From: Candidatus Nanohaloarchaea archaeon
GTDB taxonomy: Archaea; Nanohalarchaeota; Nanosalinia; Nanosalinales; Nanosalinaceae
Length of the DNA: 19,003 nt
Assembly (NCBI GenBank): GCA_046497485.1
Contig: JAWOFP010000030.1
Span: 1-19,003, forward strand
Direction: 5' to 3'
Positions 1 to 18,734 of the stretch are shown one piece after another (positions within the stretch are counted from its first letter, which is position 1; every line of letters begins with the position of its first letter). The position numbers were made by a program, and so were the translations under genes. The notes beneath the pieces are model-generated. The model had not been told where the DNA came from and made no database searches. It worked only from the letters and a program-made list of their open reading frames with translations.

Positions 1-485
1 AAGAATTGAAGGAAAAATACGATGAATTCTATATCGTGATAGGAAGTTCTGAGGAATCACGTACCGATAATAATCCCTTGACCTTTGAGGAACGGAAGAA
101 CCTGATTCACGCGTGCCACCCAGAACTAGAGATTTTAGGCCTAGAGGATACCGAAAAGACGTCGGAAGGAAATATTGAATGGGCGGAAAAACTTGAGAAA
201 CTAGGCCTAGATAGAATCATTTCAGGCAATGATCTAGTCATCGAAATAATTGATGAACACACAGATATAGAGCATGAGTGGCCAGAGATGCATGATGAAG
301 AGATTTACTCGGGCACCGAAGTGCGGAGAAGAATTAACTCTGGAGAGGAATGGCGGTATCTCGTGCCTAAATGCAGTTACGAAGAAATAGAAGATCTTAT
401 CGAGAAAATCAAAGCCTCAGGCACCCAATATAATTTTGAACCCGGTTGGAAGCAGGAGAACGCTTTCCACGGTACTTCTGGGTAA
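1..485 (+). CDS. nadM: Nicotinamide-nucleotide adenylyltransferase (archaeal NMNAT), 5'-partial
   Basis: Motifs IVIGSSEESRTDNNPLTFEER, YSGTEVRRRI and WRYLVP match archaeal NMNAT. The frame is open to the window edge and the N-terminal HxGH motif is missing, so the start lies upstream. Confidence 0.85.
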   Translation, partial: ELKEKYDEFYIVIGSSEESRTDNNPLTFEERKNLIHACHPELEILGLEDTEKTSEGNIEWAEKLEKLGLDRIISGNDLVIEIIDEHTDIEHEWPEMHDEEIYSGTEVRRRINSGEEWRYLVPKCSYEEIEDLIEKIKASGTQYNFEPGWKQENAFHGTSG

Positions 486-612
486 TAATCCTGATAGCCT
501 TGATCAAACTCATCCAACGAATTCAACAACTACAAAGTCTCGTTGCACGGCACCATCAGTTCGTCAAACACGCTTAAATCCTCAAACACTGTTTTTCCGC
601 CTCTTCAATCGG

Positions 613-677
613 TTGATTTTCAGATTTGCGCACACCCAGCTTTCAGGGAATTCTTGTCAAAGGATCTCCGCATACAG
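613..677 (-). repeat. Conserved non-coding 3' block, copy 1 (paralogous to 2765-2843)
   Basis: 613-632 vs 2765-2784 match 19/20; 651-677 vs 2817-2843 match 24/27. Confidence 0.85.
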
Positions 678-681
678 AGCC

Positions 682-2701: not shown

Positions 2702-2710
2702 AACCTTAAT

Positions 2711-2732
2711 TTAGCTCTAGGCCTTAAATAAA
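2711..2732 (-). promoter_or_regulatory. TATA-box promoter of adhesin 1 (probably leaderless)
   Basis: Minus strand TTTATTTAAGGCCTAGAGCTAA, with the TATA element 23-31 nt upstream of ATG 2701; nearly identical upstream of adhesin 2. Confidence 0.65.
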
Positions 2733-2764
2733 GTTAAGATTCTCAACATCAAAATGAAGAATTT

Positions 2765-2843
2765 TTGATTTTCAGATCTGCGCAGACTCAGCAACCCACG
2801 GCCAGGATTCAGCCAATTTTTGTCAAAGTATCTCAGCATACAG
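2765..2843 (-). repeat. Conserved non-coding 3' block, copy 2
   Basis: Paralogous to 613-677. Confidence 0.85.
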
Positions 2844-2848
2844 CTTTA

Positions 2849-2884
2849 CACCTCTCAGGAAACAGGAACAGCAGAACACCGGAA
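2849..2884 (-). pseudogene. Orphaned 3' end of a CLec/VR gene (FRCSAVPVS-stop)
   Basis: 34/36 identical to 737-772; both differences are synonymous (CGC/CGG, GTC/GTT). Confidence 0.8.
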
Positions 2885-3035: not shown

Positions 3036-4409
3036 TCAGTCAATCGCGTGAACTTCATATTCGTCCCAGCCCGAACCCGAAAAGACGGTGCCCGTAGACT
3101 CATCCACCGCGACGCCCTCCACAAAGCCCGTGTGCTCGGAGTAGGTCCACTCTTGGCTGCCATCGCTCACATCAATCGCGTGAACTTCCTTATCGTCTGA
3201 CGCCGAAAAGACGGTGCCCGTAGACTCATCCACCGCGACGCCATTCACCTGGGCCGTGTGCTCGGAGTAGGTCCACTCTTGGCTGCCATCGCTCACATCA
3301 ATCGCGTGAACTTCATTTTCGTCCCAGTCCGAACCCGAAAAGACGGTGCCCGTAGACTCATCCACCGCGACGCCGTACAAGGTGGAGTTGTGCTCGGAGT
3401 AGGTCCACTCTTGGCTGCCATCGCCCACATCAATCGCGTGAACTTCATTGTCACCCGACGCCGAAAAGACGGTGCCCGTAGACTCATCCACCGCGACGCC
3501 ATTCACGAAGTCCGTGTGCTCGGAGTAGGTCCACTCTTGCTCTCCCTCCCCAAGACCACTTTCAACCTCTAAACTACCGGAAACACTCTCATCCCCACTA
3601 ACCTCAACATCAACACTATAACTATCAGCAGATAAACCAGAAATCGGATCAGCAAAAGTAACAATCTCCGAATCACCACTACCCAAATCAGACGTAGATT
3701 CAGTATCACTTACTGTCTCACCATTCTCAATACTTAAATCAACGTCAAAACTACTGCTCTCATCACCAACATTCTCCACAGTTACATCGACATCTCCACT
3801 TTCGCCATCATCAACAGTCGCATCACTTCCTTGACCCGCAATATCCAAATCGGAGAGGTCGGCGGTCGCCGCCACGAATGTACTATCCTCAATTACCTCA
3901 AAATTCCCGGAAATACTGCCCTCAACCTGCAAATTTTCAAGGCCGCCGCTACTGTAAATTATCTCCACATCCAAACTATTAGCACCGTCGCCTTCACCCA
4001 CCTCCTGCAAAGTAACCGATCCAGTATCCCCAACACCAATATCTTCCTCATCAATCCATTCCGCAGTATTTGAATCATCACTTACACGCACCTCCTCAAC
4101 CGTAACACTGTTACTATCAGCATTACGCAAAACCAGTTGAAGCTCATCACCACTGGTGATGCCAAAATCATCTACTTGAACATCAGCACCGGTAAAACCA
4201 CTCACACTCTCAACCGACTCACTCTGAGCAATAGAAAAGATAGAACCACCAACAATAGCCACCACAAGAAGCATCCAACCATACGTCATCAAATACTCAA
4301 TAGCAGACTGGCCCTTAAAACCGCTAAAACCAGTTAATTCTTCGCTATCCGTGTGTGTGTGGAGAGATTCATTTTTATTGAAGAGTAAAGATTGTTTAAG
4401 CCCATACAT
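3036..4409 (-). CDS. Class III signal (pilin-like) surface protein with CARDB-like Ig domain and four C-terminal WD40/PQQ-like beta-propeller repeats
   Basis: Same KG|QSAIEYLMTYGWMLLVVAIVGG signal, and the N-terminal ~170 aa are clearly paralogous to 743-2701. Start placed at 4409 (MYG...) by alignment with the paralog and equal TATA spacing; the ORF track gives 4415. Confidence 0.85.
   Translation of the reverse strand: MYGLKQSLLFNKNESLHTHTDSEELTGFSGFKGQSAIEYLMTYGWMLLVVAIVGGSIFSIAQSESVESVSGFTGADVQVDDFGITSGDELQLVLRNADSNSVTVEEVRVSDDSNTAEWIDEEDIGVGDTGSVTLQEVGEGDGANSLDVEIIYSSGGLENLQVEGSISGNFEVIEDSTFVAATADLSDLDIAGQGSDATVDDGESGDVDVTVENVGDESSSFDVDLSIENGETVSDTESTSDLGSGDSEIVTFADPISGLSADSYSVDVEVSGDESVSGSLEVESGLGEGEQEWTYSEHTDFVNGVAVDESTGTVFSASGDNEVHAIDVGDGSQEWTYSEHNSTLYGVAVDESTGTVFSGSDWDENEVHAIDVSDGSQEWTYSEHTAQVNGVAVDESTGTVFSASDDKEVHAIDVSDGSQEWTYSEHTGFVEGVAVDESTGTVFSGSGWDEYEVHAID
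3039..3539 (-). repeat. Four intragenic tandem repeats (126, 132, 126 and 117 bp), beta-propeller blades
   Basis: Units start at 3539, 3413, 3281 and 3155 on the minus strand. Blocks QEWTYSEH, GVAVDESTGTVFS and EVHAI are identical at nucleotide level. Confidence 0.95.
4351..4361. repeat. (GT)5G microsatellite in the leader of adhesin 2 (encodes HTHT)
   Basis: gtgtgtgtgtg read directly. Confidence 0.9.
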
Positions 4410-4418
4410 AATCATAGG

Positions 4419-4440
4419 TTAGCTCCAGGCCTTAAATAAA
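4419..4440 (-). promoter_or_regulatory. TATA-box promoter of adhesin 2
   Basis: Minus strand TTTATTTAAGGCCTGGAGCTAA, with the TATA element 23-31 nt upstream of ATG 4409. Confidence 0.65.
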
Positions 4441-4538: not shown

Positions 4539-5564
4539 ATGGTAAACGTAATTGTAGCTGGAGTCGGGACGATCGGTAAAAGAGTGGCTGAGGCCGTTAA
4601 AAAGCAGGAAGATATGAACCTCTACGGAGTGGCGGATGTCAGCCAGACCGGAGGCCTGAGAACTGTATTGCATGAGAACGGTCCTCTGCACGGCACTGAT
4701 CTATATGCTTCCAATGAGGAAGGACTTGAAAACCTTGAGGATCAAGGATTCTATGTAGCAGGCCTCTTAGAAGATCAGCTGGATGAAGTCGATCTAGTGG
4801 TCGATTGTACTCCGCCAGGAGTCGATAAGAAGAACAAGGAGAACCTTTACGAGCCTCATGATGTGAAAGCTGTTTTCCAAGGAGGCGCGCCTGACGATAT
4901 TGCAGAGGTCAAGTTCAACGCTGACGCGAACTATGAGGAAGCACGAGGAGAAGACTTTGTTAAAGTTGTAAGCTGTAACACTACTTCTCTTTCAAGGACG
5001 ATGAATGCAGTTGATGAGGCCTTTGGAGTTGATAATGCTGTTGCTAGCCTGGTAAGACGTGGAGGAGATATTCCACAAGACGGTAGAGGGCCTATCAACT
5101 CTACAGTTCCTGTAACGGAAGTTCCTTCACACCACGGACCTGATGTCCAGGCGGTTATGCCAGAACTTGACATCAAGACTTTAGCAGTGAAAGTGCCTGT
5201 AACTTTTGGACATGTCCACATGAACAATGTAGAACTTGAGTCTCAGCCGTCTGAGGAAGAAGTTAAAGAGGCCTTCAGAAATCAGCCGCGAGTCAATTTG
5301 GTCAGTGCAGGAGAAGGTTATGATTCCACAGGCAAAATCCACGAGCAGATGAGAGATCTGGAGAGGCCTAGAAGCGATATGCCTGAAGCAGCAATCTGGG
5401 AGGAGACTATCAAAGTCGAAGACAACACACTCTATTGGATCCATATGGTGCACCAAGAATCAATTGTTGTGCCTGACAATGTCGATGCGATCCGCTCAAT
5501 GTTCGAGATGGAAGAAAAAGAGGAATCTATCAGAAAGACCGATGAAGCAATGAACCTCAGATAA
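4539..5564 (+). CDS. gap: Archaeal type II glyceraldehyde-3-phosphate dehydrogenase
   Basis: GVGTIGKRVAEAV, VVDCTP, FQGG, catalytic VVSCNTT, SHHGPDV, HQESIVVPDNVDAIR. Confidence 0.95.
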   Translation: MVNVIVAGVGTIGKRVAEAVKKQEDMNLYGVADVSQTGGLRTVLHENGPLHGTDLYASNEEGLENLEDQGFYVAGLLEDQLDEVDLVVDCTPPGVDKKNKENLYEPHDVKAVFQGGAPDDIAEVKFNADANYEEARGEDFVKVVSCNTTSLSRTMNAVDEAFGVDNAVASLVRRGGDIPQDGRGPINSTVPVTEVPSHHGPDVQAVMPELDIKTLAVKVPVTFGHVHMNNVELESQPSEEEVKEAFRNQPRVNLVSAGEGYDSTGKIHEQMRDLERPRSDMPEAAIWEETIKVEDNTLYWIHMVHQESIVVPDNVDAIRSMFEMEEKEESIRKTDEAMNLR

Positions 5565-5591
5565 ATAACTACTTTCCTTATTTCCTTTCTT

Positions 5592-6617
5592 ATGAAAATC
5601 CTGATAATAGGCTGGGGATACCCTCCAAAAATCGATGGAGGCCTAGATATAGCAGTAAAAGAGCTGTTTGAAGGCCTTCAAAAGAAAGATATTAATGTAG
5701 ATTTGATGCTTCCATCCGAAAGAGCCCCTGAAAAAGAAAATATTATTCCTATAGATGTTGAAGGCGACATGTTTTCTAAAGCAGAACAATTGAGCAGAGC
5801 AGCCGCAAAAAAGGCTTCAAAATATGATATCATCCATACTCATGACTGGTTCGGCGCTGAAGCAGGTTTCAAGGCCTCAAAATACTCCGATATAAAATGG
5901 ATTTCCACTTTTCACTCCTTGAGCTCTTCCAGAAATAGAACCCCTAGTGACGAACTTGAGAAGCTTGAAAAAATTGCTGTAGAGAACGCAGACAAAGTCA
6001 CAGCAGTCAGCGACAAACTGGCTGATGAGATTGAGGAAAAATACGGTTTAAGACCTGAAACAGTTTACAACGGGTTTTCAAATGTAGATACTCAAGAAAA
6101 AGTCGATTTCGACACGGAAATACCAGTCTTCTTCTATGTAGGAAGACATGCTGAGCAGAAAGGCCTTGAACACCTGATTTATGGATTCGACAAATATCTT
6201 GAGGAGAACGAAGGCCTACTGGTTTTAGGTGGCGATGGCCATCTCAAAGATTCACTTGAAGATTTTGTAGAAATACTTGATATAGAGGAAAGTGTTCGTT
6301 TTGAAGGCTTTATACCCGATAGAGAGCTTGGCAGTTATTACAGTACAGCCGATGTTTTTGTTTCCCCTTCAATCAATGAACCTTTTGGCTTAACTATCAG
6401 CGAGGCCTTGAACGCTGGTACTCCCGTATTGTGCACGGAGAGCGGTATAAATGAGCTTTTACCGAGCGAAGCAGTTACTATTGTTGAGCCTAACTCTGAT
6501 TCAATTGCTGAAGGCCTGGAAAAAAGTTTGAAGAAGGATTCTGTTGAAGTAGAAGGTAGAAGCTGGGATGAGATGGTTAATGATTATATCAAGAGTTATA
6601 GAGAACTAATCAAGTAA
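5592..6617 (+). CDS. Glycosyltransferase family 4
   Basis: GWGYPPKIDGGL, IIHTHDW, YVGRHAEQKG, PSINEPFGLTISEA. Confidence 0.92.
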   Translation: MKILIIGWGYPPKIDGGLDIAVKELFEGLQKKDINVDLMLPSERAPEKENIIPIDVEGDMFSKAEQLSRAAAKKASKYDIIHTHDWFGAEAGFKASKYSDIKWISTFHSLSSSRNRTPSDELEKLEKIAVENADKVTAVSDKLADEIEEKYGLRPETVYNGFSNVDTQEKVDFDTEIPVFFYVGRHAEQKGLEHLIYGFDKYLEENEGLLVLGGDGHLKDSLEDFVEILDIEESVRFEGFIPDRELGSYYSTADVFVSPSINEPFGLTISEALNAGTPVLCTESGINELLPSEAVTIVEPNSDSIAEGLEKSLKKDSVEVEGRSWDEMVNDYIKSYRELIK

Positions 6618-6621
6618 ATTT

Positions 6622-6855
6622 CTAGTTAAGCAATTTTACTTGATCTGGATTACCAGGATAAAAGCCTATAAGGCCTTTTTCCGTTTCTGCAAGGCCTGTA
6701 GAATCTTCGTAGTAATATGTTGTTTCTGTTTGCTTGTTCTTAATAGGTAGAAGGATTCGCTCTTCCTCATCTTCTCTGATGACTACTGCGGCTTTTTCAT
6801 CTCCAAAAATTTCTATTTTGGTGCCATTTTCGGTTTCTGTTGTCCTGAGCCGCAT
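6622..6855 (-). CDS. Small acidic hypothetical protein
   Basis: Fills the gap between the GT4 and GH57 genes and has host-like composition. ATG 6855 (MRLRTT...) lies 25 nt from a TTTAAA box. Confidence 0.7.
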   Translation of the reverse strand: MRLRTTETENGTKIEIFGDEKAAVVIREDEEERILLPIKNKQTETTYYYEDSTGLAETEKGLIGFYPGNPDQVKLLN

Positions 6856-6879
6856 ACAAATTAATTGAATCCCATCCAA

Positions 6880-6885
6880 TTTAAA
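6880..6885. promoter_or_regulatory. Candidate shared bidirectional TATA box
   Basis: Palindromic TTTAAA, 25 nt from ATG 6855 (-) and 23 nt from ATG 6908 (+). Confidence 0.45.
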
Positions 6886-6907
6886 CAAGCGGTCCCGACA
6901 TCAATAC

Positions 6908-8128
6908 ATGACTCAGAAAATCACACTCAGCTTTGAGGTTCACCAGCCTCACAGACTGAGAACAGAGGGAGTGAAAGAAGACGCAGACACTCTATACGAC
7001 AGATATTTTGACGATGAAATGAATGAGCACTTCTTCAGAGATGTGGCAGAAAACTGTTACTTCCCTGCAACTGAAAGACTGCTTAGAGAGGCAAAAAAGA
7101 GATCTGGCACTGATAGGCCTCTAGTAGTCAATTTTTCAATTTCTACTTCATGGATTCAACAAGCAAAAAAATACCATCCCGAACTCATCGATCTAATCAA
7201 CAGATTCCCAGATGACTCAATTGATTTCATAGGACAGGCCTATCTTCACAGCCTAGCAGGCCTTTTCGATGACAAAGAAGAATTCCGATGGCAGCTAAAT
7301 CATCACAGAGAAGTTATCGAGGAAACTTTCGGAGTCAAGCCTAAAGTAATGACTAACACTGAATTGATCTATCATAACGAGATTGGGAAGATAGCGTCTG
7401 AGGAAGGCTATGAAGGGATTTTCACTGAAGGTGTTGATAGAATTCTTGGATGGAGGTCGCCTAACGATACCTATACTCAGCCGGAGTTTGTAACTGAAGA
7501 TGGCAACTCAATAATGCTGCGTAATAGGAAACTAACGGATGATGTCGGTTATAGGTTTTCAGCTGAATGGTGGGATGAGTATCCATTAACTGCAGAAAAA
7601 TATGCGTCTTGGCTTTCAGAGACTGCCGGACATTCAGTGAACCTTTTCATGGATTATGAGACCTTTGGAGAACACCACTGGGAAGGCACTGGAATCCTTT
7701 GGTTCTTGGAATCTCTACCTGAAGAAATACTGAAATACGATAATTTAGAATTCGCAAAAGTTAGAGAGGTCGCAGAAGAAAACGAGCCTGTTGGAGAATT
7801 TGACGCCTTTGAGTACAACACTGTTTCCTGGGCAGATCAGGAGATGGACGCGAGCGCCTGGCTCGGAAACCCTATGCAGAAAACATTATTTGAAAAACTC
7901 CAGAACCTTGAAGACAAAGTCAAGGCCTTAGACGATGAAGAATACTTGGAAGTCTGGCGGAAATTCTTGACTTCAGATCATCTACATCATATCGCAACGA
8001 AGACTATGGATGATGGCTCGGTTCACAACTATTTCTCATACTTCGATCATCCGCATGAAGGATTCGCAGTCATAACAGATCACTTGATGGATTTCCAAGA
8101 GCAGGTCGAGAAAGAGCTCAGGAGCTGA
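6908..8128 (+). CDS. Glycoside hydrolase family 57 (alpha-amylase type)
   Basis: FEVHQP, HSLA, NTELIY (nucleophile Glu), LTDDVGYRFS, FMDYETFGEH (acid/base Asp), SWAD, TSDH. Confidence 0.92.
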   Translation: MTQKITLSFEVHQPHRLRTEGVKEDADTLYDRYFDDEMNEHFFRDVAENCYFPATERLLREAKKRSGTDRPLVVNFSISTSWIQQAKKYHPELIDLINRFPDDSIDFIGQAYLHSLAGLFDDKEEFRWQLNHHREVIEETFGVKPKVMTNTELIYHNEIGKIASEEGYEGIFTEGVDRILGWRSPNDTYTQPEFVTEDGNSIMLRNRKLTDDVGYRFSAEWWDEYPLTAEKYASWLSETAGHSVNLFMDYETFGEHHWEGTGILWFLESLPEEILKYDNLEFAKVREVAEENEPVGEFDAFEYNTVSWADQEMDASAWLGNPMQKTLFEKLQNLEDKVKALDDEEYLEVWRKFLTSDHLHHIATKTMDDGSVHNYFSYFDHPHEGFAVITDHLMDFQEQVEKELRS

Positions 8129-8134
8129 TTAAAA

Positions 8135-8842
8135 GTGGAAAAACATTTTATTGAAATAAAAGATAGAGAAAAAGTCGCAGCTGTGCATCACGAGGCCTCT
8201 TCTGATAAATGGTTATTTCTCTGTCACGGTTTCGGCGGGAATAAAGATAGAGGTAATAAGGGAAGGGCTGAGGCCTTCAATGAAATCGGTTGGAATACTG
8301 TAAGGCTTGATTTCCGAGGTAATGGAGAGTCAGACGGAGAATTTATCGATCAAAACTTAAGTACAAGAATTGAAGACCTTAAAGCCGTCATAGATCATTT
8401 TAATCCAGGAAAATGCATTTTATTTGGTACAAGCTTTGGAGGCAAAGTCGTATTCCATACAGCCGCTGAGAAAAAAGTAGATGGAGTAATTGGAAAGGCC
8501 CCGGTAACTTACAACAGAATCATGGATAAATTCAAGTCTGTTATTGAGGAAAAAGGGCGATTTGAGTATATAGATGGAAAACCTATCGATGAAAGATTTA
8601 TAGAAGATTTAGAGACTTATAGTTTTTCAACTGTAGAAAATCAGCTAGACATCCCGGTTTTCATAACTCATGGCGCCGCTGACCAGACGGTACACATTGA
8701 AAACTCTGTAGAGGCCTTGAAGAATCTTGATGTCGATGTAGAGTTTCAGAAGCTGGAAGGAGTAAAACATTCCTACAGTGAGGAAGGAAAGAAAAAGATG
8801 AATTCTGCTGTGAAGGCCTGGCTCAAAAACCTCATGAATTAG
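8135..8842 (+). CDS. Alpha/beta hydrolase (esterase/peptidase-like)
   Basis: CHGFGG, DFRGNGESDG, nucleophile GTSFGG, HGAADQTV and distal His; GTG start. Confidence 0.88.
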   Translation: MEKHFIEIKDREKVAAVHHEASSDKWLFLCHGFGGNKDRGNKGRAEAFNEIGWNTVRLDFRGNGESDGEFIDQNLSTRIEDLKAVIDHFNPGKCILFGTSFGGKVVFHTAAEKKVDGVIGKAPVTYNRIMDKFKSVIEEKGRFEYIDGKPIDERFIEDLETYSFSTVENQLDIPVFITHGAADQTVHIENSVEALKNLDVDVEFQKLEGVKHSYSEEGKKKMNSAVKAWLKNLMN

Positions 8843-8851
8843 AGGTAAGAT

Positions 8852-9331: not shown

Positions 9332-9366
9332 TCTTACATTAAAATTAGAAATCTTCACTTTTATCT

Positions 9367-10509
9367 TTAATTTAAGGCCTCAGTGTAGACTCCTGTTGTC
9401 CAGGCCGTGATTTGCTCCCATCTAAAGTTGTCTTCTACGCGGTCCCTGGCATTATCTCCCAGCCAGTCACTCCATCCCGGATCATTTAGAGCTCTTGAAA
9501 CTTGGTGAGTAATCGAACCAGAGTCTTCTGGATAAGTATGGAGGCCTGTGTATTCGTGAACTATTGTATCTTTCATTCCCCCAGTGTAGCTTCCGACTGT
9601 CGCGGTTTCACATGCCGCTGCTTCCAGTGGAACGATGCCGAAAGGCTCATAGACTGATGGCGCAACCGTTATCTCGGCCTCCTTCATTAGACTGACCAGT
9701 TCATTGTCTGAGACATAGCCCGGGAAGTGAACTTTGTCACCTACCTGATTCTTAGCCAACCCTCTATAATGTTCGGTCGCACCAGAACCACACATTACAA
9801 ACTTCGCGTCAGGCCTCTGATCTAGTATATGAGGCATAGCCTCAATCAAATGACCGGGACCTTTCTGAGGATACATTCGACCCACAAAAAGCACGATATT
9901 TTCCCAGTCTAAAGCATAATTATCTCTTTGAAGATTTTTGGAGTGAGAATCAAATTTTTCAAGATCTACACCGTTTGGAATATAGTTTATTTTTTCGTCA
10001 GGCACATTATACGCATGCTTGACCTCTTCGCAGAAATCTCTTCCAACAGTTATGACTTCTGAGGCCTCATAAGTACCATACCACTCCAAGTTATGTATTG
10101 CCTGTTGGTAATCAGAGTTTATTCCGTCACGGCCTTTCTGAGTTGAATGTACAGTAAATACCATTGGTAAATCTAAGGTCTTTTTCAGGCCTGTTGCTGC
10201 AGGCACGGCCATCCAGTCATGTCCATGAATTAAGTCAAAGTTTTTCTCTCTAGCGAGATGTATTCCTTTTTTCTCCATTCTATCTGCTAAACTCATTGCC
10301 CAAGAAATTGTGTTGTCTGCTGCGTCGTTTGCTGGAACTCTGTGAATTTCTACGCCGTCTCTGTATTCTTTTTCCTCTTTCTCTCCATAAGTGATTACTA
10401 CAGGTTCATGGCCTTGATCTGCCATCGTTGTGGCTAGATCTTCACAGTGCGCCGCTATCCCTCCCGCTTTGTAAGGAGGATACTCCCAAGTTATGAATAG
10501 CGGTCTCAA
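9367..10509 (-). CDS. Glycosyltransferase family 4 (alpha-glucan synthesis-associated)
   Basis: TWEYPPYKAGGI, IHGHDW, TVHST, IPNGVD, FVGRMYPQKG, PSVYEPFGIVPLEA. Confidence 0.93.
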   Translation of the reverse strand: MRPLFITWEYPPYKAGGIAAHCEDLATTMADQGHEPVVITYGEKEEKEYRDGVEIHRVPANDAADNTISWAMSLADRMEKKGIHLAREKNFDLIHGHDWMAVPAATGLKKTLDLPMVFTVHSTQKGRDGINSDYQQAIHNLEWYGTYEASEVITVGRDFCEEVKHAYNVPDEKINYIPNGVDLEKFDSHSKNLQRDNYALDWENIVLFVGRMYPQKGPGHLIEAMPHILDQRPDAKFVMCGSGATEHYRGLAKNQVGDKVHFPGYVSDNELVSLMKEAEITVAPSVYEPFGIVPLEAAACETATVGSYTGGMKDTIVHEYTGLHTYPEDSGSITHQVSRALNDPGWSDWLGDNARDRVEDNFRWEQITAWTTGVYTEALN

Positions 10510-11111
10510 TTTGCTTTAACCTCTTTAGTCTGTAATAAATCTCTGTAGATTTTTAAAATCGATTCACTCCAGTCATTAGATAAAGGATCTTTAAGATAAG
10601 TTTTTTCCTCTGGAACTTCTAAATCAAATTTAACTGAATTTAAAGTATCTTCTGAGTTTACAATTATTTTATCTGCAGATTTACACCCTTTCCATTCCAT
10701 TTCAGATATCATAGGCGAGTTAGGATCTGAAAAACCCCTCTCATTTTCAGTTGAATGAACCGTAAGCACCATAGGCCTGTCTAGGTATTCTTTCATTGCT
10801 GTAGCCCCTGGGACTGTCGTCCAATCATTTGCATGTATAATATCAAACTCCTGATCTTTAAGGAGTTCTCTTGCCTTTTCTTTCATCTCATTATTCAGCA
10901 TCATCGACCAACTGTACAGCGAATCACCCTCATAGTGAAGATTAGTTCTGATAACCTCTACTCTTTCATCAACACTGTAATGAGAACCATCATCAAACGC
11001 AATCACCGCAGCCTCATGACCTTTTTCTACCAAGGCCTCTGCTAGAGACTTCACATATTCTGAGATATCATCGCCGTCTTCAAATTTTCTGGTCAGAAAA
11101 ACTACTTTCAT
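10506..11111 (-). CDS. GT4 N-terminal-domain-only protein
   Basis: DIIHANDW, LTVHSTE and EWKG match the neighbouring GT4 N-domain; no VGR or EPFG motifs. Start and stop overlap the adjacent genes. Confidence 0.8.
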   Translation of the reverse strand: MKVVFLTRKFEDGDDISEYVKSLAEALVEKGHEAAVIAFDDGSHYSVDERVEVIRTNLHYEGDSLYSWSMMLNNEMKEKARELLKDQEFDIIHANDWTTVPGATAMKEYLDRPMVLTVHSTENERGFSDPNSPMISEMEWKGCKSADKIIVNSEDTLNSVKFDLEVPEEKTYLKDPLSNDWSESILKIYRDLLQTKEVKAN

Positions 11112-12247
11112 TATTTGAACCTCTGCTCAAACCCGAGCTCTTTGCTTTTCTCAACATCCGGCTGATTGAAAGGATTTACATCTCTTATCCATCCAGAATA
11201 AACCGACAAGAACTGTAGTAGGGCCATAAACTCTCCGATTGAACCATAACTTACTTCCTCAATTTTAAGCTCTATGAAAGGCCTGTTTTCATCTCTTAAT
11301 GCTTTTTTGACTCCTGAGGCCTCGGCATTCAATGAATTTTCAAGTTTCTGACCATCTAAATCGCCGAGCTTTCTTCCTCTAAGATCCAGTTCTCTAAGTT
11401 CTTCATCTACTTCAAGCGTCTGATGTTCGTGGCTCGACTCTATAAATATTGGAATTACATTTTCTCGGCCGCCAAACATTCTTTGATTCGTGTGATGCTG
11501 ATACTCTGGGCCTAGGTCACCGTAAAATGTCTGTCCTTCTCCTCTTTTGCAGACTGATTCATGCATTAACTGCACGAGTAATGGATAGAAACCGAAAAGC
11601 CTTGTGGAGTAGAAAGGAGTTAAGACTTCATTAAAACCTCTTCCTTCGGCTTGATAGAGTGCTTCTGCAAGAACTTGGGCATCACTACCGCTTTCCCAAA
11701 ATCTTTCATGCGCTTTCCTACCTTGATTAAAAATCTCTTCAACATCTAGGCCTAGAAGTGATGCAGGAGCCAAAGCAGTTTCGGAAAGACCTGTAAATCT
11801 CCCGCCGATATCCGGATGTTCAATTATTTCTATATCTTTCTTCTCTGAAATTTCATGGAGCAATCCGCCCCTAGAAGTCAGAGGCCTGATATCATATCCT
11901 CTATTGAGAAAGAAAAGCGTAGACTCAATAACGCCCGTAGTATTTCCTGACTTGCTAATTGGCATAACTAAAGTATCTTCCTTATCCAAGCTTCTCTCCA
12001 CATGTTTCAGATAGCCTGGTTCCATCGTTGTTATTATCTCTACATTTTTGGAATGTTCGTCTCTAAAAGCATAATTTAAAGCCCTGAAGCTTGTTACAGA
12101 GCCTCCATTGCCTATAACTACCAAGTTTTCGAAATCCTCCTCTAAATCCTGAAGCATTGAGATAGAGGTTTCATGCATCGCAAAGTATGGTTTAGGCCTG
12201 TTAAACTCTGCATTTCCAGTTTCAAGTCCGTTAATATTTATTTTCAT
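11111..12247 (-). CDS. pgi: Glucose-6-phosphate isomerase (PGI/SIS family, compact)
   Basis: IGNGGS, ISKSGNT, IGGRFTGLS, QLMHESVCK, NPFNQPDVEKSK. Confidence 0.85.
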   Translation of the reverse strand: MKININGLETGNAEFNRPKPYFAMHETSISMLQDLEEDFENLVVIGNGGSVTSFRALNYAFRDEHSKNVEIITTMEPGYLKHVERSLDKEDTLVMPISKSGNTTGVIESTLFFLNRGYDIRPLTSRGGLLHEISEKKDIEIIEHPDIGGRFTGLSETALAPASLLGLDVEEIFNQGRKAHERFWESGSDAQVLAEALYQAEGRGFNEVLTPFYSTRLFGFYPLLVQLMHESVCKRGEGQTFYGDLGPEYQHHTNQRMFGGRENVIPIFIESSHEHQTLEVDEELRELDLRGRKLGDLDGQKLENSLNAEASGVKKALRDENRPFIELKIEEVSYGSIGEFMALLQFLSVYSGWIRDVNPFNQPDVEKSKELGFEQRFK

Positions 12248-13980
12248 CTTTTCTTCTCCGCCATTTTATGTGCATCTCTGTAGTTCTCCCCAAGATTTTC
12301 CCAGGATGTCAGCTGAGCAAGCTTTCTAGCGTTATGTTTCCTCTCAGTGATCTCAGTTTTATTATATTCCGCAAAATCCTCAATAGTCAAGGCAAGTTGT
12401 TCAATCACCTGCTCCCGATCCTTATCCTGGCGTTCAAGCACTTTTATTCCTTTTCTATCATTGGAATCGACATTATCCTGCAAATATCTTCCAAATCCTG
12501 CAAGATCAGTGGTTAAAGCGAGTGCGCCATTTGCTGCAGTCTCTACAGGAGTATAACCCCATGGCTCATAGTAGCTAGGGAAGAATCCGGCGCTTGAAGC
12601 AACCACAGCTTCTTCATAATCCATTGAAAGCAATTTATCCCCAAACTCAAGATAAGTAGGATAAAATACAATTTTTACACGATCACTTTCCTTATTTTCT
12701 AATCCATTTTCCTTCAAGGCCTCTAGAATGTCATCTCCTTCATAATTCAAATCAAACGCGTTCATAGGAGGCCTACCACCTTTCTTGCTGTGGAAATTAG
12801 ACTTAAGCGATTCGAGTTCTCTTGAATCAAGTATTTCAGAAACTGCATCGACCGGATCCTGATTTGATGTCACTGCATCAAGCATGCTTTCTCTAATATC
12901 TACAATTTTCTCATCTACAAATCCCTCTAGCTCCCTGTAAAGAGATTTATTCTCCAAGACCTCCATATTGGGGCCTTTTACACCTGAAGGCACGAAAAAG
13001 AAGAAGAATATCTCGTCGCCAGGCCTGTCATTTACTTCAGCTAAGGCATCTATCAACACATCAAATCCTTTATTGTGGTATTCGTACCGGCCTGAGGTGA
13101 AAAATATTCTTGGATCATTGTCTAGATCCACGCTGTAATAGGGCTCAAAGTATGCTCTTAAGAAGTCTATGACTTCTTCTTTCTGTTCAGTATGGTTTAC
13201 TGATAGTTCTTCGAGGCTCGGATAGTCTTCTATATTGAATCCATTTGGAAGAATTTTATCCGGCTTAACTCCTATTACTTGTTCGGCTTCACGGCCTGTT
13301 ATCTCGCTTACCGTTGTGAAAACATCCGACTGTTCTGCAGCTGCTTTCTCAAAAGTATGCTTCTCTTTTACACCTAAATCATCTTCAAGGCCTTGGTCCA
13401 CACTCTTTTTATCCACCATGTTCATTAAGTCGTACTCAGAATTGGATAGTGCTCTTCCAAGAACCGTTGCGTGAGTGGTGAATACTGTCGGGCTCTCAAC
13501 ATGGAATATTGGTCCTGCCGAAAGCCACTCATGCAGATGGGCTACAAATTCATTTTCTTTTTCTAGTTCCTGTATAAGCCTTGCTACAGAATAACCCCAT
13601 TTCAGCGGTTCGTTAAAGTCAGGGCCTGCGTCAATCGAATCAACACCGTATTTCTCCCAGTACTCTTGTTTGAGATCATCCAAGTTTTTTTCGAGGCCTG
13701 AAGGATCTACTAGTATCGTTTTAGGTTTTGAATCTATATCCCAGACCCCATAATAGCACTCTATCCCCTCCTGTCTTAGAGTTTCAAATACCTCGTTGTA
13801 TGGATTTTCTCGTGGAGCAAAGTCTTCTCTAGCTGAGTCTTCATCGTAATATCCTACAGTTAGATAGCCGTCTCCGTGGTATTCCTGCATTTTGCAGCTT
13901 TTGGATTTCAATACCTGGTAGATCCCGCCTACTTTGTTGGCGACTTCAAAGGAAACTTCTACCAGCTCCAAGTTATCCAT
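12244..13980 (-). CDS. Glycogen synthase, GT3 family
   Basis: EVSFEVANKVGGIY, HLHEW, FTTHATVLGR, FTTVSEIT, SGRYEYHNKGFD, FPSYYEPWGYTP. Likely start MDNLEL at 13980, with a TATA-like element at 14005-14011. Confidence 0.93.
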   Translation of the reverse strand: MDNLELVEVSFEVANKVGGIYQVLKSKSCKMQEYHGDGYLTVGYYDEDSAREDFAPRENPYNEVFETLRQEGIECYYGVWDIDSKPKTILVDPSGLEKNLDDLKQEYWEKYGVDSIDAGPDFNEPLKWGYSVARLIQELEKENEFVAHLHEWLSAGPIFHVESPTVFTTHATVLGRALSNSEYDLMNMVDKKSVDQGLEDDLGVKEKHTFEKAAAEQSDVFTTVSEITGREAEQVIGVKPDKILPNGFNIEDYPSLEELSVNHTEQKEEVIDFLRAYFEPYYSVDLDNDPRIFFTSGRYEYHNKGFDVLIDALAEVNDRPGDEIFFFFFVPSGVKGPNMEVLENKSLYRELEGFVDEKIVDIRESMLDAVTSNQDPVDAVSEILDSRELESLKSNFHSKKGGRPPMNAFDLNYEGDDILEALKENGLENKESDRVKIVFYPTYLEFGDKLLSMDYEEAVVASSAGFFPSYYEPWGYTPVETAANGALALTTDLAGFGRYLQDNVDSNDRKGIKVLERQDKDREQVIEQLALTIEDFAEYNKTEITERKHNARKLAQLTSWENLGENYRDAHKMAEKKR

Positions 13981-14075
13981 AACTGAAACTTGGTTCTGTA
14001 TCAGTATAAAAACTCTTGATACCACTCGAAGGTTAAAATACATGTTTTATACCGAGAACAGACCCATTCACTTCT
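13981..14075. promoter_or_regulatory. Divergent promoter region (glycogen synthase operon / debranching enzyme operon)
   Basis: TTTTATA on the minus strand at 14011-14005 and on the plus strand at 14045-14051, each about 25-31 nt upstream of its ATG. Confidence 0.6.
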
Positions 14076-15833
14076 ATGTATCATTTCCAAAACCCCGGTG
14101 AGAAAATAGGGACTATTTCAAATCTTGACGCTTTTCTACATAGATCTCTAGACACAGGGTTTAAGACTAAGTGGAGCGGATTATGGACCCCTAGCTACAA
14201 GCTTCTAGACTACTATGCCTACAAAGTAAACGGGCTCTGGCTAGACCAAGAATCTCTAGAAGCAGTAGAATACGGAGAAAAAATATGCTTCTACTTTGAA
14301 ACCGACTCCCTCTCAATTAAAGAGACAGTTTCTATGCCTGAAAATATCTCAGGAATGGAAAGTAAACTTGAGATAAAAAACAAGCACGATTCAGTTAAAG
14401 CAGTTAAGATAGGCCTTGAAGCAGGAGTCGATATAAGAGAGAAAAGCAACGATATTTCAGAAAGCAAATACAGTATTAAGAGAACAAAAAATAAAATAGA
14501 AGTTTCACAGGACAGAGAACTCTTTATTTCATCTAATCAAGAATTGTTAAACTCTGATGAGCCATACATGAAGACTCATTATCCTGATGAGAAACAGGAA
14601 TGCCTTGTTCCTGGAGATATCAGCGCCAGGATAGAGATAGAGCCTCATTCGACTGAGGAAGTTATTTTCAATTTCGAGGCTGGCGAGGCCTCAAAACATG
14701 AAATTTCAAATAAGGAACAATTACTGGAAGGAAAACAGGATAGAACCTTTAATTCCTCTGTTAAAAGCTTAGAAAACTTGATATACGACAGTAAAGGTCT
14801 TGGAGTGATCGCAGGCCATCCCTGGTTCCAGAGCTACTGGGCAAGGGATACTTTCTGGACTTTACTTGGTTTAATCGATGCTGGATACTTTGAGGAGGCT
14901 GAAAAAATACTTGAAAACTTTGCTGAAAGAGGCCTTCCTGGAAAAATTAATTTAGCCTGTGAAGACGAGCCTGAAGGCAGAATCGATACTTATCCGCTTT
15001 ATATAATTGCTGCAGATAAGTTAAGACGCCACAACAAAATAAGCAGTAAAATTGAAGATGGAATGGAACAGGCCTTTGAAGAGCTGGAGTTAGATGAAAA
15101 TATTGTAGTGCATGACTCTGAAGGAACTTGGATGGACACTCTTGAACGAGATCAAGCCATTGATGTACAGTCTCTATGGCTTGAAGCAGCGGAAATAATG
15201 GATAAGCCTGAAGCAGATAAACTTGAGAAAGGCCTAGAAAAGTTTGAGGAAGACGAATACATCAAAGACACATTGACCGAGAATTCTCCTCACACTATTA
15301 ACCCGGCTGTAGGCCTGATGTTCGGCCAGTTCGATGAAAAATATCTGTCTAAAATAAATGCAGAGTTTTCCTCACGATTCGGTGCGAGAACCAGGTCAAT
15401 AACAGACCCCGGATATGATTCTTCCGGTTATCATACCGGGAGTAGTTGGGGCTTAACAACTTGCTGGGCTGCAATTGCCAACTTCCGACACGGCAAATCT
15501 ATTGAAGGCCTGAACTTCTTAGATAATCTATCAGCGTTTTTGGATGAAGATCAGCCTGGCGCATTACCTGAAGTAGTAGACTCGGAAAATGGAGAAAATC
15601 TTGGATGTATGGAGCAGGCCTGGAGCGCAGGGCTGTTCGTCCATGCCATAGACACCTATCTCTTAGGTATTAAAGTGACAGAAGATGAGCTTGTGATCGA
15701 TCCAGCAGGAGATTTCACCGGGAAACGAAGTAATAAACGAGTCGGCGACAAATACATAGATATCAAGTTTGAACACGGAGAACCTGAAGTACTCGATAAA
15801 TCTGAACTTGATAGAAAAGTGATAACTAAATGA
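14076..15833 (+). CDS. Amylo-alpha-1,6-glucosidase / glycogen debranching enzyme-like (alpha/alpha)6 protein
   Basis: IAGHPWFQSYWARDTFW, TWMDT, YHTGSSWG, LPEVVD, QAWSAG. Confidence 0.88.
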   Translation: MYHFQNPGEKIGTISNLDAFLHRSLDTGFKTKWSGLWTPSYKLLDYYAYKVNGLWLDQESLEAVEYGEKICFYFETDSLSIKETVSMPENISGMESKLEIKNKHDSVKAVKIGLEAGVDIREKSNDISESKYSIKRTKNKIEVSQDRELFISSNQELLNSDEPYMKTHYPDEKQECLVPGDISARIEIEPHSTEEVIFNFEAGEASKHEISNKEQLLEGKQDRTFNSSVKSLENLIYDSKGLGVIAGHPWFQSYWARDTFWTLLGLIDAGYFEEAEKILENFAERGLPGKINLACEDEPEGRIDTYPLYIIAADKLRRHNKISSKIEDGMEQAFEELELDENIVVHDSEGTWMDTLERDQAIDVQSLWLEAAEIMDKPEADKLEKGLEKFEEDEYIKDTLTENSPHTINPAVGLMFGQFDEKYLSKINAEFSSRFGARTRSITDPGYDSSGYHTGSSWGLTTCWAAIANFRHGKSIEGLNFLDNLSAFLDEDQPGALPEVVDSENGENLGCMEQAWSAGLFVHAIDTYLLGIKVTEDELVIDPAGDFTGKRSNKRVGDKYIDIKFEHGEPEVLDKSELDRKVITK

Positions 15834-16459
15834 TAATCGTAAACTTCAAGGCCTACAAGGAAGCAACAGGAAAAGATGCAGAAAAACTTTCAAAGCAATG
15901 TAGAAAAGCTTCCAAAGAATCAGGTGAAAAAGTAGTTTCTGTGCCTCAACATACAGATGTCGGCAGAATGAAAGGAAAGTTTTATGGACAGCACCTAGAT
16001 CCAGTAGAGCCCGGTAGTCATACAGGACATACTACTGCTGAGGCGTTGAAAGCATCAGGAGCTTCCGGTACACTGATAAATCACTCAGAGCGAAGAATAG
16101 ATCCTGAAAAGATAGAGAGAAGCATCGAGAGAGCAAAAGAGAAAGGCCTAACTACAGTTGTTTGTGCTCAGTCTCCTGAAGAATGTGAAAAATTCTCCAA
16201 GTTTGAACCGGACTTTGTGGCTTTTGAGCCGCCAGAGCTTATTGGAGGCAATATCTCGGTTTCAAGTGCTAAACCTGATTTAATCAAAAAAGCAGTTGAG
16301 AAGTCAGAAGTCGATGTCCTAACCGGCGCAGGCATAAAAAGCCGTGAAGATGTGGAAAAAAGCATAGAATTAGGTTGCAAAGGAGTTTTAGTGGCATCCG
16401 CAGTAGTAAAAGCTGAAAACACTTATGAAGAAATCATGGAGCTCTGTAAAGGCCTATGA
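15830..16459 (+). CDS. tpiA: Triosephosphate isomerase (archaeal type)
   Basis: IVNFKAY, GSHTG, LINHSERR, AFEPPELIG, GAGI, GVLVAS. Confidence 0.96.
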   Translation: MIIVNFKAYKEATGKDAEKLSKQCRKASKESGEKVVSVPQHTDVGRMKGKFYGQHLDPVEPGSHTGHTTAEALKASGASGTLINHSERRIDPEKIERSIERAKEKGLTTVVCAQSPEECEKFSKFEPDFVAFEPPELIGGNISVSSAKPDLIKKAVEKSEVDVLTGAGIKSREDVEKSIELGCKGVLVASAVVKAENTYEEIMELCKGL

Positions 16460-17715
16460 AAAACATATGGAGACAGAGATACAGCGAAATAAGTGAGAAA
16501 AGGCCTGAGCTAGATTTTAGCGTTCTAACAGCCTTCAACGCAAACATCGACCTGAGAACCAGTTATGAAGACTTGGACTGGGATATGGGAGATGTAGATG
16601 GAGAAGTACTGGATTCAGTAAATAATATTGAAGATGTCAAGTCTGTGTTAAAGCACGCAATGAAAAATGGAGAAAACATTGAATGCGATCTAAAAAACCT
16701 AGATAAAGAGTTCTCCGGCGAGAAAAACCTAGGAGGACAGGCAGGGATCATGGCTAACTTTCTTTCAGGCCTAAATGGAAGCGTAACTTTCTATACACCA
16801 TTTCTTTCACAGGAACTCGCTGATCTCGTAGATGAGAAAGTGCTCCACCCTTATTTTGACGAAGAATTTGTTTTAAAGAATGTTAGAGATGCTTCAAATA
16901 CAGATAGGACAAAAAAGAATATTATAATTGAATACAACCAAGAATACTCAGGCAGAGTGATTCTTTCAGACAGTTTGAGAGGATTTGGGCCTTACTTCCG
17001 GTCAGGGATTGAGAAAAACCTGGAGATGATAGATCAGGATGTAGATAGAATTCTGGTATCAGGTTTTCATAATGCAGAGGGGAACTTTGAGGCTAAAATC
17101 GCTAAATCGGTTGGCCAGTTAGAGAAGCTGGAATCTCCTAAACACTTAGAAATGGTAGACTGCCAAGAAGACAAATTCAAACATATAATGGAGGAACTGA
17201 CACCTCATGTCGAAAGCATAGGCCTAGATGAGACTGAAGGAAAGAAAGTAAGAGATTTCTTCAACCTGGAAACTAATGACGAGCTCCACATAGGAGAGGC
17301 CTTTGAAATGTCCAAAAAATTAATTGAAAAATCAAACTTAGAGAGAGTACATCTCCATACTTACAGATATCACTTACTAGTGACCGATAAAGATTATCCT
17401 GCCAGTTTAGAGCATTTGAGAGACTCTATGCTATTTGGAGAGACCTCCGCAGTACTATCCGCTGATATAGGCAGATTACCAGAGTCCGAGGACTTTGAAG
17501 GCCTTGATTTCGATAAAGTTCACATCAAGAATATGGATGAGCTTGAAGAATTCGCTAATTTCTTTAATTTAGAAGATTTCGCCGAAAAAGGTTACTCCAT
17601 CGTTGAAGGCTATAAAGTAGCGGCTATTCCAACTCTTATACATGAAGAGCCTGAAAGACTGGTTGGAATGGGAGACCTGATTAGCTCTGGAACCTATGCC
17701 TATGAGATAGATTAG
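16456..17715 (+). CDS. ADP-dependent glucokinase/phosphofructokinase family protein
   Basis: AFNANID, LGGQAGIMAN, VSGFH, HLE, SIGLDETE, HLHT, VGMGDLISSG. Substrate specificity cannot be resolved by eye. Confidence 0.9.
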   Translation: MKNIWRQRYSEISEKRPELDFSVLTAFNANIDLRTSYEDLDWDMGDVDGEVLDSVNNIEDVKSVLKHAMKNGENIECDLKNLDKEFSGEKNLGGQAGIMANFLSGLNGSVTFYTPFLSQELADLVDEKVLHPYFDEEFVLKNVRDASNTDRTKKNIIIEYNQEYSGRVILSDSLRGFGPYFRSGIEKNLEMIDQDVDRILVSGFHNAEGNFEAKIAKSVGQLEKLESPKHLEMVDCQEDKFKHIMEELTPHVESIGLDETEGKKVRDFFNLETNDELHIGEAFEMSKKLIEKSNLERVHLHTYRYHLLVTDKDYPASLEHLRDSMLFGETSAVLSADIGRLPESEDFEGLDFDKVHIKNMDELEEFANFFNLEDFAEKGYSIVEGYKVAAIPTLIHEEPERLVGMGDLISSGTYAYEID

Positions 17716-18734
17716 GCCTCACAAGAGTCTCTGACAACTCCTTCTACCTTTCCAAGTATTTCCTCCAGATCTTCTTCTGTATCTGCTTCACATCTGACAC
17801 TCATCTTTTCTTCAGTGTTGGAAGGCCTGACCAACACCCAACCGTTCGCAAATTCAATCTTGACACCGTCCTTGTCGTTCATTTCAAGATGTGAGAACTC
17901 CTGTTTAACTTTCTCTATAACAATCTGTTTTCTTTCCTCTGGACAGTCTATCCTTAACTCAGGGCTTACAGGGTAATCCGGATACCCCTCCAGTTTTTCT
18001 ATTTCTCCAGAATCTACTATATCACACATTAAACAAGCTGCAAGAAGTCCATCATCCCATGGAAATCCTAGAGACGGGAAATAGTAATGGCCTGAAAGTT
18101 CCCCAGCGAAGACAACTTCAGGATCAGAATGAATCATTTCTGAAATAAAAGTATGGCCCACTCTGCTCTCTACTGGCTCGCCTCCTATTTCTCTAATTCC
18201 TTCTTTCACCAGTTTTGAAGCTCTCAAGTCATGCACAACTTTACCCGAGTCGTTTTCAAGTACTCTTTCCGAAAACAATGCGAGAACTTCATCCTCAGTA
18301 ATGTATTCTCCTTGATAGATAAATCCCGCTCTGTCTCCATCACCATCAAATAAGATGCCGAGATCTTCATCGCTCATCTCGCTTTTCAAGGCCTCTTGAG
18401 CTTCTTCCTTTGTAGGATCTGCTAAATGGTTCGGGAAGTTACCATCAACTTCTTCATTAACATTTTTTACTTCGCAACCTATTTCCTCTAAGAGTTTAGG
18501 CCCTAAAACCCCCGTTACGCCGTTCCCATAGTTTGCGGCGACTGAGATATCAACATTAAATTTGTCAGAGACTGCTTCAATATACTCTTCCGCTACTTCT
18601 TTGTCCTCATACTCTCCTTCTCCTGTTGAGAATGATTCTTCTTCATATATTTCTTCAATTTCCTTCATTCCATTTTCTCTGGACATCGCAAGGCCTTCAT
18701 CCAGGCAGAACTTGAAACCTGTGTACTCTGAAGG
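17712..18734 (-). pseudogene. Phosphoglucomutase/phosphomannomutase, 5'-truncated at the catalytic SHNP motif
   Basis: FPNHLADP, FDGDGDR, VGH, GELSGH, DGVK and VRPSNTE are present. The frame extends upstream of ATG 18686 as PSEYTGFKFCLDEGLAM to an in-frame TAA (18737-18735). The phosphoserine and the rest of domain I are absent. Confidence 0.8.

Follow-up and report, generated by a model that had tools for sequence, protein, structure and literature searches.

AGGCCT in nanohaloarchaeal genomes, a candidate palindromic Chi-like site of an AddAB-type helicase-nuclease

The AGGCCT palindrome in the window and in the genome

We analysed the palindromic hexamer AGGCCT in a stretch of 19,003 nucleotides from a Candidatus Nanohaloarchaea archaeon (contig JAWOFP010000030.1, here G000:C44), which at its full length is called the window. 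The assembly to which it belongs (G000) has 968 kb, is 97% complete and consists of contigs of up to 59 kb. The window carries the following features.

137..18696, no strand: 69 dispersed AGGCCT sites (65 genic, 4 intergenic), a portion of the 3,249 in the genome
743..2701, minus strand: second adhesin-like gene, 652 aa, motif-poor (3 AGGCCT, 1.5/kb)
2719..2724, no strand: intergenic AGGCCT in front of the 652-aa gene, immediately 3' of a TATA-like TTTATTTA box
3036..4415, minus strand: 459-aa adhesin-like gene without AGGCCT; its GC is about 0.5
4427..4432, no strand: intergenic AGGCCT in front of the 459-aa gene, immediately 3' of the TTTATTTA box of the paralogous promoter
4539..18686, no strand: predicted core glycolysis/glycogen gene block, carrying 60 of the 65 coding AGGCCT
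6671..6697, no strand: the two closest AGGCCT sites of the window, with 21 bp between their starts

We observed 69 exact copies of AGGCCT in the window (3.6/kb), against a mean of 4.29 and a maximum of 12 in 200 dinucleotide shuffles. An earlier note on this DNA had counted 65-70 sites, which agrees with the exact number; its expectation of about 3 was of the right order of magnitude, although slightly low. The sites had also been described as lying in different reading frames and in genes on both strands, and the 65 coding sites are indeed spread over 17 open reading frames (ORFs) on both strands and over three frames, as compared to 9.0 after synonymous-codon shuffling (maximum 19 in 1000 shuffles). 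The placement of AGGCCT beside both adhesin TATA boxes was likewise correctly seen; it is no more than would follow from the genome-wide density.

In the gene block at 4539..18686, about 70% of the AGGCCT positions permitted by the amino acids are filled. As judged mostly from reading the translations, the block would encode GAPDH, glycosyltransferases, a GH57-like protein, a glucan synthase-like protein, a debranching enzyme, TPI, an ADP-dependent kinase and PMM. The stretch 2725-4426 is among the longest AGGCCT-free runs of the genome, and the lack of the motif in the 459-aa adhesin-like gene is as expected of variable or recently acquired DNA. Only 2 of the 68 gaps between sites are shorter than 30 bp (5.7 expected), a local trace of the short-range exclusion that was seen genome-wide.

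AGGCCT was the commonest hexamer of the genome, with about one copy per 300 bases, and each of the 66 contigs had 1.8-5.8/kb. The observed/expected ratio (O/E) of other 6-bp palindromes was at most 1.63, and ACGT and GATC were among the most avoided 4-mers. The 1,087 called ORFs held 2,938 sites, against 410 (maximum 445) in 30 synonymous shuffles; by frame, 530/1000/1408 sites compared with 100/127/183 (5-8-fold). The earlier note had set a loss of the enrichment under codon-preserving shuffles as the refuting outcome; the enrichment stayed at about 7-fold and in all frames. The spacers were as dense as the genes, with 297 intergenic sites in 87 kb (3.4/kb).

Where the protein permits AGGCCT, 52-78% of the positions were filled; relative to the codon background, the odds ratios were 13-53. 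Words with one mismatch were at most about 2-fold above those with two mismatches, the exception being AGGCCC (6-10-fold, on the coding strand). Since genomes poor in the motif show much of the same one-mismatch background, no single source class feeds AGGCCT. A Vsr-like source class was rejected, as no one-mismatch class was depleted when the poor genomes served as baseline. The flanks of intergenic sites were T-rich at -2 to -4 (0.40-0.46 vs 0.32), and occupancy in 48 highly expressed genes was not lower (0.65 vs 0.67).

We observed that in motif-rich genomes the O/E was 1.3-1.9 for RP, 1.2-1.4 for GL and 1.4-2.35 for [EKQ]A[FYCWLS], as against 0.78, 0.89 and 1.00 in poor genomes. The force behind AGGCCT has altered proteins; it acts at the level of DNA and is strong enough to alter the proteome. 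An integrase-primase island of the genome was depleted of the motif (9 sites in 8 kb). This island (L202:5253-13118, G000:C59) is an integrated element that encodes a tyrosine integrase as well as a primase of the P4 family, and no viral relative of the primase was found.

Distribution among relatives and spacing of the sites

We compared 50 genomes from 21 genera of one family. Twelve of them were motif-rich (about 2-4.8/kb), G004 was intermediate, and 37 were near or below background. The rich genomes made up 4/5 of genus g1, 3/3 of g7, 3/3 of g19 and 2/6 of g2, and they include the records of Ca. Nanosalina sp. VS9-1 (L033) and archaeon SG9 (L038). None of 16 genomes from four other families was rich. 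An RNA polymerase tree of 30 genomes (FastTree) placed all the rich ones in one clade with support 1.0; this clade holds poor ones too, and one gain followed by several losses would be the simplest reading of the distribution.

Traces of decay were visible in several genomes. In G004 the decay affected every position, the motif being about 8x and most one-mismatch neighbours 3-5x, while the amino-acid imprint persisted. A relic excess of 2-4-fold was seen in G050 (18 vs 4) and G051 (21 vs 9). In genus g19, which is rich, the 5-mer half-site AGGCC-N was itself enriched, about 1.6-3.9-fold. Rich relatives, whose silent sites are saturated, shared 25-75% of the G000 sites at orthologous positions, at a 4-fold-site identity of 0.36-0.48. 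Permitted positions that are empty in G000 were also filled in relatives (0.33-0.85). As relatives fill permitted positions irrespective of their state in G000, the force is genome-wide and not positional. The description of AGGCCT as a lineage-specific, actively maintained iterated palindrome is upheld.

The exclusion was examined using pairs of permitted positions. Sites repel each other below about 100 bp: the ratio for both positions being occupied climbed with distance, from 0.12-0.21 for pairs closer than 15 bp through about 0.6 (24-48 bp) and 0.7-0.95 (48-100 bp) to 1.0 for pairs more than 120 bp apart. The effective log-enrichment likewise increased, with values of 0.8 for spacings of 6-12 bp and 3.8 for 150-300 bp. 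Control hexamers had no consistent repulsion, although two sparse controls had low bins. The exclusion was also found in G005, G010, G022 and metagenome relatives. A saturating-benefit model with a length of 30-60 bp fits the spacing. Helical or nucleosomal phasing was ruled out, as no 10.5-bp period was seen. The half-sites of G022 track the coding strand (681:310).

No other hyper-abundant word was found in samples of 5-70 kb from motif-poor genomes that carry AddAB. We also noted that GGACC/GGTCC is about 1.7-fold over codon shuffles in G017 (L478, L479, L257) and L040, with 48 AGGACCT against 19, in the presence of a full AddAB-like pair; this may be a shifted site, or codon-pair bias. A triple-motif scan of viral contigs gave at least 121 stretches, of which 80 were taken; the 25 most enriched had a D+E of at most 0.13, and none of these looked halophilic.

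The AddAB-like pair and the proposed role of AGGCCT

Pfam and NCBIfam scans covered about 760 of the 785 soluble proteins, 91 of the 204 membrane or secreted proteins and 43 of the 65 short ORFs of G000. No match to Vsr, MutS/MutL, a Dnd cluster, ComEC or ComEA was found among the proteins scanned. The genome carries the following gene pair.

G000:C62:17323-19830: AddB-like protein, 836 aa, with a C-terminal PD-(D/E)XK domain
G000:C62:19830-22496: AddA-like UvrD helicase, 889 aa, with a C-terminal PD-(D/E)XK domain, adjacent to the AddB-like gene

The AddA-like protein has UvrD domains and PDDEXK_1, with the D-x-K and Q-x3-Y motifs aligned, and it matched TIGR02785 at E 1.8e-47, which is below the family cut-off. 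It is predicted to combine an SF1A motor with a C-terminal RecB-family nuclease. The AddB-like protein had no helicase family match, and the Walker A motif is apparently missing too, on reading of the alignment. Its structural model (pLDDT 87) had B. subtilis AddB as the best Foldseek match (4cej_B, E 1.5e-12), and the structural match to AddB spanned residues 3-820 (Z 17.9, 651 aligned, rmsd 7.0); the score for AdnA was lower (Z 15.5). The model points to an inactivated helicase fold with a C-terminal nuclease, encoded in the adjacent gene. The cysteines of the 4Fe-4S staple, which many but not all AddB proteins have, were missing from the consensus of 30 nanohaloarchaeal AddB-like sequences and present in the consensus with distant homologs.

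Every one of the 12 rich genomes has the AddB-like gene, although completeness is as low as 68-82% in some of them. The gene was also seen in 17 of the 38 others, and none of the 21 genomes without the pair was rich. In genus g2 it occurred in exactly the two rich genomes of six. The association has a nominal Fisher p of 5e-4, the kin not being independent. The PD-(D/E)XK nuclease of AddA was intact in 12/12 rich genomes. In eight systems (g21, g10, g15, g20), all of them motif-poor, the AddA-like protein stops at about 756-772 aa and the nuclease is gone.

The AddB partners of these truncated proteins were compared in two windows, 18-56 and 131-150, which we take, from secondary-structure order, to be the equivalents of motifs Ia/Ib and II. 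The consensus kept was 0.52/0.53 in the eight truncated systems, as against 0.88/0.87 in 11 rich systems and 0.82/0.76 in 11 poor systems that were full-length or outgroup (six of these being outgroup genomes with AddA length unchecked). The nuclease windows of AddB in the truncated systems stayed at 0.74-0.84. Deletions at AddB 33-45 were seen in 7/8 truncated systems and in 0/11 of the poor comparison systems. Where the AddA nuclease was lost, the presumed Chi-scanning segments of AddB were selectively eroded. In B. subtilis, the AddA nuclease is reported to cut the 3' strand, and motifs Ia, Ib and II of AddB to read Chi (PMC3321194, PMC4614115).

Mre11-Rad50, the customary resection machinery of archaea, was not found in the rich genomes tested. 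The Rad50 hook was found in 0/4 rich genomes tested, and a close Mre11 homolog in 0/11 rich genomes (one had a weak 29% match), with none in G000; NurA was found in 0/5 genomes tested, four of them rich. Rad50 was present in 4/6 of the AddAB-less genomes tested, and Rad50 or Mre11 in 4/7 motif-poor genomes with the full pair (G007, G014, G065 and G043). A full AddAB together with no Mre11-Rad50 is a rule that covers all 12 rich genomes, with G017, G004 and G016 as exceptions. The AddAB-like enzyme appears to replace Mre11-Rad50 as the end-resection machine in these nanohaloarchaea. Other genes did not track the motif: RadC (in 35/41 genomes), a PAPS-reductase considered as a possible phosphorothioation gene (24/41), a second PD-(D/E)XK protein (1/5), DUF6884 (2/5) and histones (25/25, compared for presence only).

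Together, these observations make it rather likely that AGGCCT is the palindromic Chi-like recognition site of the AddAB-type helicase-nuclease. The data directly establish how abundant the word is and how it is spaced, how the genes are distributed, which domains were lost, and the fold. The recognition, attenuation and drive that we infer would run as follows, by analogy to B. subtilis. The enzyme would load at a double-strand end and the AddA motor would unwind the DNA, while the C-terminal nuclease of AddA would degrade the 3' strand. Degradation would end once AGGCCT is captured by AddB, in its inactive helicase domain. Capture would spare the 3' tail for RadA-mediated repair, and the palindrome could operate in both directions. 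Sites would be favoured wherever the protein tolerates them, by selection for shorter or cheaper resection, by a conversion drive in which alleles without the site are degraded and recopied from templates that bear it, or by both. Another site only tens of bases away would add little; the neighbouring site would already do the job, which would lead to the short-range exclusion. In lineages that have lost the AddA nuclease, or that possess Mre11-Rad50, AGGCCT would be unneeded and would decay, and a GGCC restriction system would push the word below chance. Among the options in the earlier note, recombination is thus the one towards which the evidence points, in the form of DNA end resection by an AddAB-like enzyme; the methylation-directed option was not supported.

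Several points weigh against this assignment. The link between AddAB and the motif is a correlation among kin, from about four genera in one clade, and some 200 unannotated G000 proteins stood outside the cross-genome comparison. G017 has a full pair but few copies of the motif (17 vs 12), and Mre11 was not found in it; in G004 AddA is full-length, Mre11 was not found, the Rad50 hook gave only a sub-threshold match, and the motif is decaying; and in G016 the AddB-like gene is in three pieces. Calls of absence are weak in assemblies that are 68-89% complete. The eight truncated systems may go back to a single event or to a few, and do not count as eight independent tests, and three truncated genomes (G050, G052 and G013) also carry a second AddA copy of the full-length kind. 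Searches of PDB sequences with the AddB-like protein and two profiles gave no match that would align it residue by residue to B. subtilis AddB. Diagnostic AddB residues Q206 and N194 were not significant (rank 25/325 genus sets by best column and 130/325 by count), and the motif-poor G007 keeps both. As for spacing, a convex gap-cost model in which degraded length is minimised (benefit proportional to d1*d2) misfits the data, and the saturation length of about 30-60 bp is below the kilobase resection of bacteria. Half-sites of opposite orientation also exclude each other, and 23 samples of G022 showed no skew of half-sites between replichores. Known Chi sites are non-palindromic and usually polarised, and the leading-strand polarity typical of them is not found here, as a palindrome cannot be polarised.

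A wider proposal seems to us about as likely as not. Nanohaloarchaea would have swapped Mre11-Rad50 for an enzyme of the AddAB type, and their AGGCCT would be the first Chi in archaea and the first that is a palindrome. A resection-linked drive would have spread it until codons and amino acids were rewritten, and individual lineages would have switched it off when they lost the 3' nuclease or where they have Mre11-Rad50. The site may also mark DNA as self, so that a symbiont that scavenges nucleotides would spare its own genome when it degrades the DNA of host or virus, and a resection enzyme, not a methyltransferase, may underlie other iterated palindromes such as HIP1. Among the 50 genomes of one family, in which gain, decay and domain loss have all occurred naturally, the pair with the AddAB fold and a candidate site vary together, so that an unexplained HIP1-like word becomes a question for a single experiment and the 30-year-old HIP1 problem gains a testable alternative. 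In the literature we covered, which takes in little of the subscription journals, we met no paper on the high frequency of AGGCCT in nanohaloarchaea and none on a Chi site in archaea, and a 2026 preprint states that no archaeal Chi has been identified (10.64898/2026.05.08.723854).

Alternative explanations, known systems and other loci

The methyltransferase (MTase) link proposed in the earlier note was evaluated by profile searches in 41 genomes, seven of them rich (three of these single-contig); five further rich genomes lay outside this set. No MTase family was common to the seven: the C5 family PF00145 was found in G000 alone, the N4/N6 family PF01555 above cut-off in G022 alone and the D12-class family PF02086 in none. 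G000 had no amino-MTase motif pairs beyond those of RNA/protein MTases. Its C5 MTase resembles M.HaeIII only in the catalytic part, and the locus (L196:101-4271, G000:C53) has this gene beside an McrB-like ATPase and a 452-aa gene. Full-length M.HaeIII-like C5 MTases (E 3e-95 for G024) adjoin an NgoPII-family nuclease in G024 and G020, and both genomes are depleted of AGGCCT (97 and 73 sites) and of GGCC. We noted that this GGCC-type restriction-modification pair is near-identical in these two distant nanohaloarchaea (L002:1456-3375 in G024, L001:1456-3355 in G020). The NgoPII-type nuclease was found in none of the five other genomes searched (G004, G007, G017, G050 and G051), and it therefore accounts for the depletion in G024 and G020 only. 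A cognate methyltransferase, with AGGCCT as METHYLTRANSFERASE, was rejected on these grounds. The one nanohaloarchaeal methylome that we found reports GDGCHC (PMC11001535, PMC10266531).

HIP1 (GCGATCGC) and the alternate cyanobacterial HIPs are also hyper-abundant palindromes, independent of frame and both coding and intergenic (PMC4390886, PMC5861425, PMC13756078), at a reported 300-2,700 per Mb against 2,000-4,800 for AGGCCT; like HIP1, AGGCCT is shared at orthologous positions and patchy between relatives. A further trait of HIPs is a periodicity of 10-90 kb. A HIP1-type origin would have a cognate GGCC/AGGCCT methyltransferase, of the cell or supplied by the host, make and keep the sites together with methyl-directed or very-short-patch repair. 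Such a model has been proposed for the cyanobacterial words (PMC4390886), exchange of MTases between a nanohaloarchaeon and its host has been reported (PMC11001535), and G000 does carry one C5 MTase. However, AGGCCT lacks a methyltransferase shared by the seven rich genomes searched, GGCC methylation goes with its depletion, it tracks a resection enzyme, and neither a match to Vsr, MutS or MutL among the proteins scanned nor a depleted source class was found. We consider this origin very improbable, and AGGCCT, which resembles HIP1 but lacks the methyltransferase link, is counted neither among the HIP words nor as an established Chi site. Another possible origin is bias, either in the codon pairs or amino acids of an acidic proteome or in context-dependent mutation, with AGGCCT as a by-product; this would suit the largely genic position of the sites and the frequency of RP and GL dipeptides. 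It is refuted by the 7-fold excess after synonymous shuffling in all frames and by the equally dense spacers. The absence of the word from 37/50 relatives of the same family and a repulsion not consistently seen in control hexamers speak against it as well, and we give it practically no weight.

An uptake or exchange signal accrued by molecular drive, as the USS of Pasteurellaceae or the DUS of Neisseria, shares with AGGCCT its density and its effect on proteins (PMC2817400), and pairs of H. influenzae USS within 100 bp count as one (PMC7811141), so that close pairs are redundant in both. HIP1 itself has been proposed as an uptake sequence (PMC13756078), and type IV pilus ATPases are present in G000. 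No uptake receptor or channel was found among the soluble and membrane or secreted proteins scanned for ComEC/ComEA, the pattern of AddA nuclease loss is not predicted, and AGGCCT is a 6-bp palindrome. USS and DUS are longer and non-palindromic. We regard an uptake signal as improbable. A somewhat better candidate, though still an unlikely one, is a dimeric protein that binds double-stranded DNA at AGGCCT (a nucleoid organiser, or a partner of SMC or histones), with even coverage selected and the AddAB correlation due to shared ancestry. The symmetry of the palindrome fits such a protein, as do the footprint-like, near-complete redundancy below about 15-20 bp with recovery by about 120 bp, half-site exclusion that is independent of orientation, the T-rich flanks, and the presence of four histones, Alba and SMC-ScpAB in G000. 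Against it, histones occur in all 25 genomes searched, rich or poor, there is no helical phasing, occupancy is alike in highly expressed genes, and the loss of the AddA nuclease, the erosion of AddB and the match with Mre11-Rad50 are left unexplained.

A Chi site weakens nuclease attack on the 3' strand and stimulates recombination, and the same would be expected of AGGCCT on the proposed reading. As a Chi-like word, AGGCCT is short and over-represented and co-occurs with a two-subunit helicase-nuclease, like the Chi of AddAB in B. subtilis (5'-AGCGG-3') and S. aureus (GAAGCGG) (PMC12748557, PMC3321194, PMC4614115). The AddA-like subunit, with its predicted SF1A motor and C-terminal nuclease, and the AddB-like subunit, with its apparently inactive helicase, nuclease and best fold match to AddB, correspond to that enzyme. 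AGGCCT is poorer in acquired DNA, such as the island and possibly the adhesin-like genes (0 and 3 sites), as Chi is reported to be scarcer in newly acquired DNA; non-polarised candidate Chi motifs are reported in the same source (10.1101/2020.08.13.249359). It differs from known Chi in its archaeal host, its palindromic form and its short-range mutual exclusion. The AddB-like protein, at 836 aa, is shorter than bacterial AddB and without the Fe-S cysteines, and its activity is putative. A similar helicase-nuclease architecture is described for mycobacterial AdnAB and the UvrD-Cas4-like fusions of mesophilic archaea (PMC3321194, PMC5704561). Unlike AdnAB, the B-like subunit has no helicase family match and is matched better by AddB than by AdnA. 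Neither AdnAB nor the UvrD-Cas4-like fusions are known to have a Chi.

Other observations concern the window and the remaining contigs. A search with the GAPDH of the window matched solely Nanohaloarchaea and three 'uncultured archaeon' records (26 loci), and the GAPDH tree was poorly resolved. The adhesin-like paralogues (743-4432) have a common promoter and N-terminus, and the N-terminal stretch has matches at many positions of related genomes. In public contigs, joints omit parts of this region, which hints at a shuffled surface-protein family. Two to five histone matches were found in each of the 25 genomes searched; the four histone genes of G000, a genome of 0.97 Mb, lie at L158:13740-13937, L175:17434-17628, L184:8667-8861 and L187:16883-17077. 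A stand-alone PAPS-reductase-domain protein (L164:695-1645, G000:C29) is unusually conserved, at 74-90% identity in 13 family members. NucS/EndoMS is divergent beside RadC, directly upstream of the RNA polymerase operon (L134:14972-16490, G000:C7). A PCNA gene followed by a primase-like gene occurs on two contigs, C11 (L141:2691-4451) and C55 (L198:4293-5884), partly duplicated, possibly owing to strain mixture or assembly overlap. A type I-B-like cas operon with Cas8, Cas7, Cas3 and Cas4 lies at L183:339-6691 (G000:C45), and no CRISPR array was detected in the G000 assembly. We also found a reverse transcriptase of 334 aa (L199:361-1362, G000:C56) and, besides several inteins, four free-standing LAGLIDADG-domain proteins of 220-280 aa (L150:15075-15860, L192:5951-6697, L204:2721-3383 and L187:3647-4477).

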